Assembly (NCBI GenBank): GCA_905178155.1
Contig: CAJINV010000004.1
Location: forward strand, 3,875,117-3,880,865
Reading direction: 5' to 3'
Origin: Amoebophrya sp. A120
Lineage: Eukaryota > Protista > Dinoflagellata
DNA length: 5,749 nucleotides
The notes below the pieces were generated by a model. The model did not search any database, was not told the origin of the DNA, and worked only from the letters and a program-made list of their open reading frames with translations. Shown piece after piece: positions 1 to 5,710 of the stretch; position 1 is the first letter of the stretch, and each line of letters opens with the position of its first letter. The translations under genes were made by a program, and so were the position numbers.

Positions 1-2
1 AG

Positions 3-864
3 GACGTGACCATGCGGGAAAAGAAGAAAAAAGCGGTGCTGCGCTGCCACGACCTGCTGCTCCAAAACCAGTTTCACGCCTCGCTGTCGACGCTGATGGG
101 TGTGTATCAAATGCAAAAATGTCTGGGTCTGGAAGAATGCAGCTTGTCATGCTAAATCTGAAGCATGCAAAAATCTGTGTTGCATGATTACCAAAAGTCG
201 CCCAGTTTTGATCAAGTCGGGAGCAGGGAGTTTCTCATGCAGGATAGGCATTAGGGAGATCGCACAGACTCTGTCGTGCTAGGTCCTGCATTCCAGACCT
301 CATGGGTCATCGAAAAGCTGCATGACAAGTCGCGCATTCTTCCTGACCCAGACACTTTTGCATTTGATAGTGTGGAAGTGGGGACCCAGGACACGCCGGC
401 GGTGTACATGAAATTTCTATTGAGAGGAAAAGTCCCCCATCCCCATGTCGAAAAGGCATGCTTTCGAAAATTTGTGTTGCTGATTTGAGACCACAAATCA
501 CGTCTGTCTTGCAAGAAGACAAACGCAGAGGCTTCCGCGCCATTATGGAAGCGATTTGGCATGCTGTTGGGGCTAGAGGGCAGCCGTTTGTAATGCCAAG
601 CACCTAGACCCAAATGTCCCTCCCTAGGCCGCGCATCTGGCTGCGATGCCGTATTGCAAGACAGCGCGCATTTGTGTACACAAGTCCTGCATCACAGATT
701 TCCCATTTGATATGGGGTGGGGGCTTTTTTCATTTTGATAATTTCAGGACGAAACTTTCCACTTTCAGTTCGACCACGACGCCGCACGGGAAAATTTCCG
801 CCGGGCCCTGGCGTTGGTGCTGAACCAAGAGGACGTGGTGTGGGAAAGGACTTTTCAAGTTTGA
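3..864 (+). CDS. 3' part of a split protein-coding gene, join(<3..104,375..417,746..864); hypothetical protein with a PH-fold-like C-terminus
   Basis: Deleting E1 and E2 plus one copy of each 5-bp direct repeat gives one open frame: DVTMREKKKKAVLRCHDLLLQNQFHASLSTLMGV-EVGTQDTPAVYMKF-QDETFHFQFDHDAARENFRRALALVLNQEDVVWERTFQV*, stop TGA 862-864. Third codon positions are mostly G/C. The frame is open from the window edge. The PH-like call rests only on the strand-strand-helix pattern and is inference. Confidence 0.8.
105..369. mobile_element. E1: 265-bp MITE/introner-like TIR element within the gene
   Basis: TIRs 105-152 and 320-369: TATCAAATGCAAAAATGTCTGGGTCTGGAAGAATGC... versus reverse complement TATCAAATGCAAAAGTGTCTGGGTCAGGAAGAATGC.... 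Exact 5-bp direct repeat GTGTG at 100-104 and 370-374. Confidence 0.92.
418..740. mobile_element. E2: 323-bp MITE/introner-like element with degenerate TIRs within the gene
   Basis: Left end TATTGAGAGGAAAAGTCCCCCATCCCCATGTCGAAAAGG versus right-end reverse complement TATCAAAATGAAAAAAGCCCCCACCCCATATCAAATGGG. Further pairing of 468-480 with 689-701. Exact direct repeat ATTTC at 413-417 and 741-745. Removal restores the frame. Confidence 0.85.
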
Positions 865-946: not shown

Positions 947-1303
947 TATCGAAAGTGCAACTACTACCGCTACCGGAATATTCCAATTTTTGAGGGTCGA
1001 AAAAAACAGCTTCTGAGGATCGGAAAAAAGAGCCTCTCAGGGTTGCCGGAATCCTGACGCCAGGCTGCGGATTCGCCCCTGCCGAAAGCCTGACCGCCCT
1101 GCTTCATCATCGTCGTGAATAGCTAGTAAGAACACGCTTCATCTTCAGCTTCGTGTGGTGTTGTACTGCAAGTGCTGGCGCAACATTATAGCTAAGGGTC
1201 TTCGCGATTTGTGAACTAGCTAACCCCTCAGAAAACAGACTAAAAAAAGGCCGAACGTTGGAAGCCAATCCGCCCGGGCCTATCGCTCCCTCTGGCCCCA
1301 CCT
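947..1303 (+). repeat. Left long TIR of E3
   Basis: Aligns to the reverse complement of about 3066-3428, e.g. TCTCAGGGTTGCCGGAATCCyGACGCCAGGCTGCGGAT, TTGTGAACTAGCTAA and GGAAGCCAATCyGCCCGGGmCTATCGCTC. Confidence 0.9.
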
Positions 1304-1973
1304 CAAGGTCGGCGAGGTGCTCGATATCGTCCTCGGGAACAGCTAGCATCTCCTCCAATATCAGCGTGGCCAGTGCTTTCTCGTGGATGGCCCAATCCGC
1401 GAGCTTCGCGTCTCCGAACCGCCGCGCAGTGACGACACTGATCAGCCGGGAGCCTAGTAAGTTTTTACTTTTGCAGCTGTCGAAGAAGATGCTGGGCCGC
1501 CCTCTGGTGTTTGGTGTTGCTCGTCGGGCCTAGTGTCACGGGGCCAGCGGCTTCCTTTTCTGGGGGGATGCGCCGGATTTTCGCCCGACAAAGTCCAGGG
1601 CTGGGGACTCACTCGCAAAGGCTGGAGAGGTGGCGCGTTGGCTGTTAGCTTAGTTCACCTGGTGGCGACTATTATGGCGATCGGGCTCTTGATCGTCGCG
1701 CCGGGGGACGGCCGGCCCACAACCCCGGCCGAAACAATCGCGAGCCCGAACCGACAGAAAAACGAAAGCACAGCGCCAGCATATTTGTGCGGGATTCTGA
1801 TGATATATATACGCATCATCGTCGTCATATTTGTGCACGAATCTGATGAATATACTCGGAAAATAATAAATATATTAATATATTCCGGCCGTCTGACCAG
1901 GCTCGAGTCCGAGCCTCGCCACTTTTCTGGAATTTATTCGCTTTTTGTTGGTTTTTTTGTCGACTTCTGGCCC

Positions 1974-2380
1974 GGTAGTAAAATCGCCAAAATCGCCGAC
2001 ACCATGCGGGCTATCTTTCTACTCCCGACATTTTCAACGAGTGGAAATATTACAGAAATATTAAAAAAGTAATTAACTTAATATATTTATTCCCAAGATA
2101 ATAAATATATTCGCGGGGAATATTTTTTTAATCACGAAAGCCGTCAGCTTTTGCTATGGTTTTGGTCGGTAGTAGAAAGAGAACCACCACGGTGCTGCTG
2201 ATTTTTGCGAATTTGCTACCGATTCAGAAAGTCGACAGAAATACGCCAGAAATCACAACAAGCGCCGGAATATTCGAAAATAATAAAGCTATACCATTTT
2301 TGAATATTTTCCTTCATGGCGCGCGTCGGTAGTAGAAACAGAACCCGCATGGTGTGGACGATTTCGGCGATTTTGCTACC
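1974..2380. repeat. Three copies of a ~56-bp motif in the AT-rich core of E3 (one forward, two inverted)
   Basis: 1974-2029 (GGTAGTAAAATCGCCAAAATCGCCGACACCATGCGGGCTATCTTTCTACTCCCGAC) is the inverted copy of 2165-2220 and 2325-2380. The latter two are direct repeats 160 bp apart. Confidence 0.85.
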
Positions 2381-2437
2381 GAGCCCAAAACCAAAGCCAA
2401 AGCGTGCGACTTTGTTGGTTTTTTTTAAAAAACTGTC

Positions 2438-2470
2438 GCGAGGCTCGTGCACGAGCCTCGCACGAGCCTC
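2438..2470. repeat. Perfect 24-bp palindrome plus an 11-bp tandem duplication
   Basis: GCGAGGCTCGTGCACGAGCCTCGC at 2438-2461. GCACGAGCCTC occurs at 2449-2459 and 2460-2470. A related hairpin AGGCTCG-AGTC-CGAGCCT lies at 1899-1916. Confidence 0.85.
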
Positions 2471-2504
2471 GCGGATATAGTATCTCAATACTTTCGGCAT
2501 ATTT

Positions 2505-2595
2505 CTGGCGAATATAATTCGACCACTTTCGAGCTCGGGCGAGAGCTCTGGCGGATATAATGAATTCGACTACTTTTCGAGTTCGGCCGAGAGCC
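2505..2595 (+). repeat. Imperfect ~45-bp tandem repeat, 2 copies
   Basis: CTGGCGAATATAATTCGACCACTTTCGAGCTCGGGCGAGAGCT (2505-2547) and CTGGCGGATATAATGAATTCGACTACTTTTCGAGTTCGGCCGAGAGCC (2548-2595). Confidence 0.8.
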
Positions 2596-3065
2596 AAAAG
2601 GATATACGTCGCGAAGCGGTTCGCCCACTTTTTGAGCCTCGGCGGGAGCCAAAGCAAACAAGTCACGGCCGAATAGCCGGCCCAAAAGGTCGGCCCGGGA
2701 GCGCCTCTTTGTGGCGACGCGGCCGGCCGATGAAATGAGTGGGGCTGCGTGCCGCAGGGGAGTTGGGTCCCCACCCGGGCCGCCGCGCCATCTGTCTTTC
2801 CTCCTGCTCGTCCTAATCTTCTTGCCCAGGGCCAGAAGACCAGGGCCGCGACGAGCAAAAACTAGTGCTACGGATGGCGCTAGTAGTCAAAAAGCACCGC
2901 TGCCATGCAGCAAGATAGAAGTAAAAGTAAAGCAGTACTGTGCTCCAGCGCCTTCGTCAGCGAAGCTTCTCCAGTTTCCAGCTCGACGGCTTCGCTGTTG
3001 TCGGAAAGCTGGCGCAGCTCGATCTTCCTGATCAGCCGCTTCCTGGCGGCGTCGTACCCTCCGCG

Positions 3066-3428
3066 GAGGTTGGCTGGGACCAGAGCGATAGTCCCGGGCA
3101 GATTGGCTTCCGTCGTTCGACCTTTTTTGCGCTCCTTTTCTGAGGGGTTACTTAGCTAGTTCACAAGTGAAGACTTTAGACCCTAAACCCTAAACCATTT
3201 AGCTATAACGTGCCAGCGCTTGCCGTTCTTCTTGTATATCAAAGGACAACGCACGAAGATGATGATGAAGCAGTGCGGTCTTCAGGCTTTCGGGAGGGTC
3301 GGATCCGCAGCCTGGCGTCGGGATTCCGGCAACCCTGAGAAGCTTTTTTTTTGGATCCTGAGCGGCTGTTTTTTTCGACCCTCAAAAATTTGAATATATC
3401 GGTAGCGGTAGTAGTTGCACTTTCGATA
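3066..3428 (-). repeat. Right long TIR of E3
   Basis: Reverse-complement partner of 947-1303. It differs by indels, including a telomere-type insertion at 3181-3196. Confidence 0.9.
3181..3196 (-). repeat. Short interstitial TTTAGGG-type telomeric repeat (2.3 units)
   Basis: CCCTAAACCCTAAACC, absent from the equivalent position of the left TIR (TATAGCTAAGGGTCTTC). Confidence 0.55.
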
Positions 3429-3621
3429 GAACGCGAACCGATTCACTTTCAAGAGTTTGATTTGATTTCCGTAGCAGAAGCAGCTTTATATATCGTTATC
3501 CGTAGCAATAGGTCGATACATATANGAACGCGAACCGATTCACTTTCAAGAGTTTGATTTGATTTCCGTAGCAGAAGCAGCTTTATATATCGTTATCCGT
3601 AGCAATAGGTCGATACATATA
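3429..3621 (+). other. 96-bp exact duplication around a single N; probable scaffolding artefact
   Basis: 3429-3524 is identical to 3526-3621, separated only by the n at 3525. Confidence 0.8.
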
Positions 3622-4103
3622 GAAGTACTTACTCGAGAAGCAGAGCAGAGGTACTTCCAACGCGAATTATCCCACAATAATTTGTCGTACGCATATGCAG
3701 GGCGAGAAGTATGATTCATGGGCGCCCCACCCTGCTGGTGCCTGCGGTCTCTATCTTCTGCGAATCAGCTGCTACGTGTTCAAGGGATCTGTCGCAGCGT
3801 AATATCGCAGGCTGCAGCAAGGAGCACCTGTCGTACTCTAATGCCTGCTCCGCCACTTTTTCATTGAAATTGTGCAAAAGATCTCTTTGTCAAAAAATCG
3901 TGCTATCACAGCTTTTTCTATCGAAGGTTGCAGTGCTTCGCTGCAGTAGCAGGTGGAGCACCAGTACTAGCTGTAGTGTCACGTGGCCCCGAAGAACCGT
4001 TCAGCCGCTTGGAGATACGAAACTACTCGGAGTCCTCACTGCCACTTGTTACTTTCACGAAACTCCTACATGGAGTCACTTTCAGTAGCATTACCACCAA
4101 TTC

Positions 4104-5413
4104 GTATTCGTACGCAGCTGCGACTGCGAGATCCGGTAGTGGTTTTTGGCCATCCCTTGTCGTCCTATAATCGTTCAAATTTTTCCAGTTTCCAATCGTC
4201 CACTATGTCGTAACCGTAGGCGTTCGCGGTTTCTTCTTTCGTTCACTACACATCTGAGAAGCTGAAATCGTCTTCCGTTACTTACTACAAACATGAAGAC
4301 GTTGATTGCACAAGTTAGGTAGTCATCAAGAACGTTCCATCGTTTTCCAGCATTCGCATTGAAAAAAAAAAAAAATGAATTTCCTACACATCAGGACGCC
4401 CCCCACATGCGTGGCTACGAACAAACTTGGAGTTTATCTTCCGCCACTTTATGTATTTTACACGAGGTCGAGGACCCCTTCGTATAGCCTATTTCGCATT
4501 CATAATTGTTTCATGCGACTAAACAAAACTTGAACGATCGCTATTCTATTTTATCCCTGCTCGACGCACCAGCACTGGTCGTACCGGTAGGCGAAGAACG
4601 TGTGCGTATCTGGACCTGGAGCAAGAAAATGACGACGTTCTTCATGTGCTCACGGTTTACTTGGTTCACCGGTTCCGGTTGTTCCGTGTGGTGGATCGTG
4701 ATCACCGGTTCATTCGTGATCATGATAATCGCGCGCCATCATGGCTTTTCTGATGCTGCGACTGGTACATGATGAGTAGTCCGAAAGTATTCGTGCGCAG
4801 CTACGGGGTGCAACTTAGTTCCGGAGTCTGAATGTCGTGGTTTTCTGGCCGCCCCTTTTCGTCCTCTCGTTCAAATTTTTCGTTCAGTTTCCAATCGTCC
4901 AAAAACGCGAATGTTTCGTAATCGTTCGTGATTTTTCTTCTTCCTTGTTCACTACGTTTCTTAGAAGCTGAAATCTTGTCTGCATTTACTGCGGACGTGA
5001 GTAGATTGATTGCTCACGATGTCAACTAGTTTTTATCAACGTTCCATTTTCTTGTCAGTGACAAGCGCTAGCCTTCGCATTGAAAAAAAAGTTGAATTTT
5101 CTACACATCAGGACGAACCCCCGAGTGGCTACAACTAACTTGGAGTTCAAATTTTACCACTTTGTAGTTTATGTTACACGTTCACGCGGCGGTGTAACCG
5201 TATTTCTATTTTTTTCATCCGGTTAAAGCAAAACTTGAGCAGCTGCTATTCTAAGTAAGTGTTTTATCCCTCTCCGCGTCACTGGTCGTATTAACCGTAG
5301 GCGAAGAACGTAACATCTTGAGCAAAATGACACCCTTCTTCATGTGCTCAACACGGTCTACCAGGTTCACCGGTTGTTTCGTGTGGTGGATCGTGATCAC
5401 CGGTTCATTCGTG
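4104..5413. repeat. Diverged ~690-bp tandem repeat (copy A about 4104-4718, copy B about 4787-5413)
   Basis: Collinear shared blocks GTATTCGTrCGCAGCT, TCGTTCAAATTTTTC, CAGTTTCCAATCGTCCA, AGAAGCTGAAATC, TTCGCATTG(A)n, CTACACATCAGGACG, GTAGGCGAAGAACGT, and 34 identical bp at 4685-4718 and 5380-5413. Confidence 0.9.
4541..5080 (-). pseudogene. Possible decayed minus-strand gene copy in the tandem repeat, product unknown
   Basis: Peptides are conserved between copies (DDWKL(N)EKFER; TNEPVITIHHTxQP...EHMKxxVI), several indels are frame-preserving, and stops lie near 4541 and 5251. The frames are broken by stops and frameshifts, so coding status is uncertain. Confidence 0.35.
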
Positions 5414-5431: not shown

Positions 5432-5710
5432 TATCCTGAGTAAAAACGTACCCACACCAGAGTCAGGGTGGGGATTTTGCAACACAACCCTAGGAGTTTG
5501 GTGAGTCATGCATGACAAGTTGCACTATGCAGTGTAGTGCAGGTTAGCAAGTGCAGCCGCATCACAGATTCGTCTGCTCATCCTGTTCACAGCATCACAA
5601 ATTCCAAAACACGATTGGAAATGGCTCTCATGGGGATGCGCATTACAAGTCTTCCTCTCTTTGCAAATCTGCATTACAACTCTGGTGTGGGTACGTTTTT
5701 ACTCAGGATA
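5432..5710. mobile_element. E4: 279-bp MITE/introner-like TIR element
   Basis: Perfect 32-bp TIR TATCCTGAGTAAAAACGTACCCACACCAGAGT at 5432-5463 and 5679-5710. It has the same TATC...GATA ends as E1 and E3 and the same internal motif as E1 and E2. The flanks GGACA and CTCAC do not match. Confidence 0.88.

Follow-up and report, generated by a model that had tools for sequence, protein, structure and literature searches.

How a gene of Amoebophrya sp. A120 can function with two terminal-inverted-repeat elements lodged in its reading frame, and at which level these elements are removed, is the question raised by the present locus. In the window (the whole stretch of 5,749 nt that was analysed), the two elements, E1 and E2, are very probably short non-coding DNA transposons that interrupt the coding part of a conserved gene, from whose RNA they are likely removed. 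They belong to the published A120-type introner system of Amoebophrya, and in this sense they are already known.

Organization of the locus

The features of the window are collected in Table 1. A sequence-only reading of the same DNA had reported the two elements and the stop codon (TAA, 153-155) that interrupts the unspliced frame starting at base 3; both are present, but E4 and E3 were missing from its list of elements. E1 is flanked by copies of GTGTG and E2 by copies of ATTTC. The inverted arms of E1 span 36 nt and are 94% identical, the arms of E2 are diverged, and both elements fold end to end, with RNA folding z-scores of -8.6 for E1 (0/200 shuffles as stable) and -5.3 for E2 (0/100). 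A motif composed of TAT, seven variable nucleotides, and at least three A (TAT-N7-AAA) is found at both ends of each of E1, E2, and E3. E2 has 13 BLAST matches among the related loci listed (69-88% identity), three of them end to end. E1 and E2 are separated by 48 nt, made up of 43 nt and one copy of the repeat, as against the approximately 45 nt noted earlier.

Table 1. Coordinates of the features in the window
Feature	Position	Strand	Remark
Exon A (coding, 5' end open)	1..104	+	ends with left duplication GTGTG, 100-104
E1, 265-nt TAT...ATA introner	105..369	.	both ends TAT-N7-AAA
E1 right 5-bp duplication copy	370..374	+	one copy would leave with E1
Exon B (coding, 43 nt)	375..417	+	ends with left duplication ATTTC, 413-417
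E2, 323-nt TAT...ATA element, second family, diverged arms	418..740	.	
E2 right 5-bp duplication copy	741..745	+	
Last coding exon	746..864	+	stop TGA 862-864; 3' UTR on to 946
E4, 2482-nt TAT...ATA element, long inverted arms	947..3428	.	in 3' UTR
Likely 3' UTR, continued	3429..3695	+	contig 9 of run X3 ends at 3695
E3, TAT...ATA element	5432..5710		32-nt perfect arms; no target duplication

E4 is bordered by the duplication GAACG (942-946 and 3429-3433) and has inverted arms of about 340 nt, with 276 of 385 aligned columns identical; its ends carry TAT but not AAA. Two minus-strand frames (1107-1529 and 2880-3155) score as coding in a self-trained model, and inner inverted repeats are located at 1965-2385. 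The frames of E4 gave no credible match in Pfam and none in PHROGs or in viral contigs, a helix-turn-helix lead in the Atlas (at 0.83) fell below the bar, and Rfam returned one match, at chance level. E4 may be a longer and now decayed representative of the mobilising family. As for E3, its relatives reach 95% identity, and a target duplication is present in 8 of 10 full-length relatives but not in E3 itself. E3 sits where the third copy of a local repeat has its edge, which suggests that one end of the element was rearranged or mis-joined.

The segment 3429-3524 recurs exactly at 3526-3621, with a single N (3525) in between; this 96-nt duplicate is an assembly join and no biological repeat. 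An old tandem duplicate (4136-4718 and 4834-5413) is 69% identical over about 600 nt, and a low-depth contig of run X3 matches 5148-5358.

The host gene and its restored reading frame

Removal of E1 and E2, each with one copy of its duplication (270 and 328 nt, respectively), gives 87 open codons that end at the TGA of the last exon, with no stop or frameshift although the arms of E2 are diverged. Two homologues, P0001 and P0011, were identified with the last exon (742-861) as the sole query, and the restored frame can be aligned with both of them across all three exons: 63/85 residues are identical to P0001 without a gap, and 54/85 to the C-terminus of P0011 with one gap. By exon, the identities to P0001 and P0011 are 26/34 and 22/34 (exon A), 6/14 and 9/14 (exon B), and 31/37 and 23/36 (last exon). 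The C-termini of both proteins differ from the stop position in the window by no more than a few residues. When pairs of junctions near each element were scanned, the best alignment scores were obtained at lengths of 270 and 328 nt with both homologues.

The conservation relative to P0001 and P0011 supports the view that the host gene is live, and the absence of decay in its exons, claimed earlier, is borne out. The proposed 87-aa frame is likewise open and conserved, but it covers just the 3'-terminal part of a longer gene, P0011 (source name Amoebophrya sp. A25) being a protein of 716 aa. The gene looks lineage-restricted, because a search with P0011 as the query retrieved only P0011 itself and one further protein. 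In the search that had yielded P0011, 17 of 18 matches were dropped as short repeat matches (P0003 and P0004, both checked, are TPR proteins). No Pfam family was found for the host protein, all PH-like leads being sub-threshold.

Related elements at other loci

The exact 25-nt pattern of the E1 end occurs at no fewer than 134 loci, all within one accession series, with 0 matches in viral contigs. At least 116 unique copies of the E1 family were located without assuming a duplication. Among the copies listed, 108/116 start with TAT and 94/116 are bordered by an exact 5-nt duplication, while lengths of 2, 3, 4, 6, and 7 nt account for 10, 1, 1, 0, and 1 copies; a 5-nt duplication was seen in 0/2000 random pairings. 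The duplicated 5-mers of the copies listed have no consensus. In 74 of the 94 copies (among matches listed), none of the equivalent cuts on the two strands offers a GT-AG, GC-AG, GA-AG, or AT-AC pair.

A detector that combines TAT...ATA ends, paired arms, and a 5-nt duplication was run on 241,255 nt of related loci and found 229 elements (216 unique), as compared with 0, 0, and 1 in three shuffles. AAA occupies positions 11-13 in 382/432 ends, a proportion to which the search pattern itself contributed in part. Detected elements occupy approximately a quarter of the bases in these loci (L001-L134); E2 itself was missed, its arms being too diverged for a detector of paired arms. Within the arms, pairing often fails at positions 4, 5, and 7 but is kept at 11-13 (and at 1-3, where the detector imposes it); a sequence-specific reading of TAT-N7-AAA is suggested by this pattern.

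The consequences of removal for the reading frame were evaluated by calling strand and frame separately for each flank, using a codon model that had been trained on segments outside the elements. Such a call could be made for 75 of the 216 elements; both flanks lie on the same strand in 67, and 61 of these are in phase after removal (p about 1e-22, in a test blind to removal that is off by 3 nt). Under the strictest cut, all 43 of 43 elements are in phase. Read-through is possible in 0/60 in-frame elements, and the insertion phases among 60 elements are distributed 23:25:12. A blunter test based on the longest frame gave 105/160 on removal versus 72-78 for off-frame controls (103 for a shift of +3 and 7 unspliced); it was replaced by the flank-phase test because its separation from the controls was only modest.

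Orientation within genes was compared in six clusters defined by interior sequence (47 of 62 elements), in which the two directions are represented 13:12, 5:7, 2:2, 1:1, 1:1, and 2:0. The exon side of the elements has no consensus. As 19 of 112 neighbour pairs are at most 50 nt apart, the close spacing of E1 and E2 is not special.

Sequencing reads across the window

Four runs were mapped to the whole window, including X1, which behaves as DNA, and X3, which is classed as RNA by an automated guess only. X1 has depth in 30/30 bins, with summed values of 1e4 to 7e5 over the bins of E1, E2, and E3 and of 22-60 over the unique parts. Depth of X3 is confined to 11/30 bins, with none over 961-3456 or 3841-4992. 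From the raw-read RNA runs X16 and X17, 52 and 4 partial reads (90-99%) were obtained on repeats only, leaving the gene uncovered.

In contig 9 of X3 (880 nt), positions 368-466 correspond to 1-99 of the window, 509-710 to 740-941, and 711-880 to 3526-3695; the contig extends 367 nt upstream of the window start and is identical to the window over 740-941, with zero differences. The gap between its first two pieces is 42 nt, which equals precise double removal (48 nt minus 6 nt fitting either side), while GT-AG splicing of E1 predicts 45 nt. Contig 9, from a putative RNA run, is therefore spaced as expected after removal of both elements, exon B being matched by length alone.

Contig 9 also skips E4 exactly, position 941 being joined to 3526 (equivalent to 3429). 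However, the depth of X1 is about 21-28 inside E4 and over 4689-5402, as compared with 45-58 over 1-99, 769-960, and 3526-4714, which suggests that the locus has a second copy or allele from which E4 is absent. Position 62, C in the window, is G in both X1 and X3 (a silent change), and at position 3975 all X1 contigs differ from the window base. A second copy or allele may thus exist, because X1 depth halves in E4 and base 62 differs in X1 and X3. Since X1 depth is halved inside E4, its skipping in contig 9 is no evidence of splicing; the chances are even that the absence of E4 from this contig is due to a DNA copy or excision rather than to splicing.

Alternative explanations

The element-free form might come from DNA, either as an expressed second copy or allele devoid of the elements or through excision resembling that of ciliate internal eliminated sequences (IES), which the sequence-only reading had proposed alongside removal from RNA. 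In ciliates, IES are excised from somatic DNA in a programmed manner at a TA pair, and one TA is kept, whereas E1-family elements keep a random 5-mer. An empty site would look the same as the removal of an element with one duplication, and both the halved X1 depth inside E4 and the window base at 62, unseen in X1 or X3, agree with an origin in DNA. Such an origin is nonetheless improbable. With 61/67 other insertions restorable in frame and 0/60 readable through, it is unlikely that each of them has a spare empty copy; the DNA-like run X1 carries the element families at very high summed depths; and none of the 15 joints listed, of 90, corresponds to an empty site at this locus. Moreover, the class of introns described by Farhat et al. 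(PMC7789003) is defined there by junctions in RNA-seq data, placed on genome assemblies in which the elements are still present. Of the two routes proposed earlier, removal from RNA agrees with contig 9, and DNA excision gained no positive support for E1 or E2. Removal at the RNA level is likely here, given one contig of a putative RNA run, the frame statistics, and the demonstration of the class in print.

Still less probable is ordinary spliceosomal splicing at nearby canonical sites. Among the equivalent cuts no GT-AG pair exists (six positions for E1 and seven for E2), in agreement with the earlier description of the junctions as not GT-AG; in-frame GT-AG choices do exist close by, namely, 104-370 for E1 (267 nt, one extra residue) and 432-747 or 402-747 for E2. 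In addition, 15% of the canonical introns of A120 share the same repeat layout (PMC7789003), and in other dinoflagellates the duplication supplies introners with their splice sites (bioRxiv 2020.10.14.339549). These choices, however, score below precise removal: the score against P0001 decreases from 339 to 330 with GT-AG at E1 and to 321 or 298 with GT-AG at E2, and that against P0011 decreases from 278 to 267 and to 264 or 242, respectively. The 42-nt gap of contig 9 and the limits of its pieces, at 99 and 740, match only the precise form, and the duplications have no G bias.

A dead gene copy struck by two ordinary MITEs, which the plain MITE anatomy of the elements and a possible second locus copy might bring to mind, can practically be dismissed in view of 87 codons without a stop or shift despite the diverged E2 arms, the conserved exons with their kept stop position, and the same pattern at dozens of other loci.

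Comparison with known systems

Precise removal of E1 and E2 from RNA would conform to what has been reported for A120. Non-canonical introns with RNA-seq support, inverted repeats, and direct repeats of 3-5 nt were described by Farhat et al. 2021 (PMC7789003), who counted 29,850 repeated non-canonical introns in A120, their ends consisting of TAT, seven variable bases, and at least three A. According to Gozashti et al. 2025 (PMC12130899), A120 has 58 introner families, including TIR elements of approximately 260 bp with non-canonical sites, and its family 38 contains integrase-like frames. E1 and E2 resemble these introners in their ends, border repeats, hairpin, length of about 250 nt, occurrence in families, non-GT-AG junctions, and presence of several copies per gene, and the closest named homologue of their host gene comes from Amoebophrya A25; the comparison with Amoebophrya introners made earlier was thus right down to the terminal motif. 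Of the features of A120 introners, an inverted repeat of at least 8-20 nt joining both ends is found in E1, while E2 is diverged and folds end to end; direct repeats at the borders (3-5 nt) measure 5 nt at both elements; and membership in a repeated family is evident from the loci that share one 25-nt pattern and from the very high summed X1 depth. No defining difference was found.

Some details differ or have no counterpart in the published descriptions. Here the duplication has a constant length of 5 bp and a random sequence, as against 3-5 nt with a variable position in PMC7789003, and the pipeline of that study covered introns of 40-1000 nt, whereas E4 has 2482 nt and lies in a 3' UTR. Copies in both orientations are not stated for Amoebophrya in the main text of PMC7789003 or in the literature searched, although subscription papers or supplements may contain such a statement. 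Three 14-nt end motifs had no match in the supplement text of PMC12130899, whose tables are apparently devoid of sequences.

The TIR introners of Aureococcus and Polarella are similar in their transposon origin, TIRs with target site duplications, length-neutral removal, and, in some classes, insertion in either orientation (bioRxiv 2020.10.14.339549; PMC9860276). Their duplications are biased because the elements carry or recruit real splice dinucleotides, while no bias is observed here. Other non-canonical introns have their own end preferences, e.g., AG-AC or AG-AT in Fritillaria and CAG/CTG pairing in euglenids (PMC11282704). Among DNA transposons, IS3EU and GingerRoot share the TA..TA termini (PMC10045372), reflected in the predominant TAT start of the copies listed, and their integrase-like transposases would fit the integrase-like frames of A120 family 38 (PMC10045372; PMC12130899). 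Their duplications, however, are usually 6 bp (PMC10045372), a length absent from the 116 copies listed here. No assignment to IS3EU or GingerRoot was made, because the duplication is 5 bp rather than 6 bp and no transposase was found.

A parallel outside Amoebophrya is SOS splicing, described in C. elegans and human cells, which requires pairing of the arms and the factors AKAP17A, CAAP1, and RTCB instead of the spliceosome (Zhao et al. 2025, PMC12779559). As would be the case here, a DNA transposon leaves the mRNA near its paired inverted ends and without GU-AG; SOS splicing operates in 3' UTRs as well. SOS splicing is imprecise and leaves indels (PMC12779559), whereas here the join is exact and the genes depend on exactness. 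Imprecision of this kind is not seen in contig 9, which has an exact join, or in the phase kept at 61/67 elements, bearing in mind that contigs hide minor isoforms. Neither Amoebophrya nor introners are mentioned in the main text of PMC12779559.

Possible mechanism of insertion and removal

Insertion may be mediated by an integrase-like transposase acting in trans at nearly random sites, with the 5-bp duplications pointing to a 5-nt staggered cut. Searches of the E4 frames in Pfam, PHROGs, viral contigs, and the Atlas found no transposase. Removal would then occur at the RNA level, with the element and one duplication copy leaving together. Its signal could reside in the symmetric ends TAT-N7-AAA, which would be able to pair and bring both duplications together; a signal in the ends is argued for because copies work both ways and no consensus exists in the duplication or at the exon edges.

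The enzyme is perhaps a hairpin-guided cut-and-ligate activity similar to SOS splicing but precise, a reading that we favour weakly, by analogy, and at slightly less than even odds. Strong stems, which would hide both ends, the lack of splice dinucleotides, the precedent of SOS splicing, and the absence of strand bias in a motif resembling a branch point near the 3' end (13 sense versus 11 antisense cases of 62) speak for it; the imprecision of SOS splicing speaks against it. A spliceosome adapted to act without U1, as suggested by Farhat et al. (PMC7789003), is nearly as likely. Both ends supply a T-rich 3' stretch, whichever the orientation. Guidance by a hairpin, as envisaged in the sequence-only reading, did not gain from the pairing test: mismatches of the G-U and A-C types in the arms number 54 and 46 on the sense strand (p = 0.48), with no G-U excess. 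Sense and antisense energies, whether of the arm duplex or of the whole element, do not differ either, and selection for RNA pairing is therefore without support. A strict need for a hairpin is also argued against, because clear inverted repeats are present in only 11-30% of the non-canonical introns of Amoebophrya (PMC7789003).

A more general proposal, that Amoebophrya possesses a precise spliceosome-independent pathway which excises paired transposon ends from mRNA in any orientation and at any target and seals the exons exactly, even in the case of a 2.5-kb element in a 3' UTR, is doubtful at present. If true, thousands of genes would depend on this pathway, a perfected equivalent of SOS splicing in animals, and transposon insertion into exons would come at almost no cost.

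Significance

The locus is one of the tens of thousands of published Amoebophrya introners. The present analysis adds a fixed 5-bp random duplication, both orientations, the lack of an exon-side consensus, and the absence of read-through. With these additions, the signal can be narrowed down to the symmetric ends, and a direct comparison with SOS splicing suggests itself. The window does not decide the enzyme question, yet it provides a compact substrate, with two elements, a 43-nt exon, and one GT-AG decoy. Proof of a precise non-spliceosomal route would add a further way to process nuclear mRNA.
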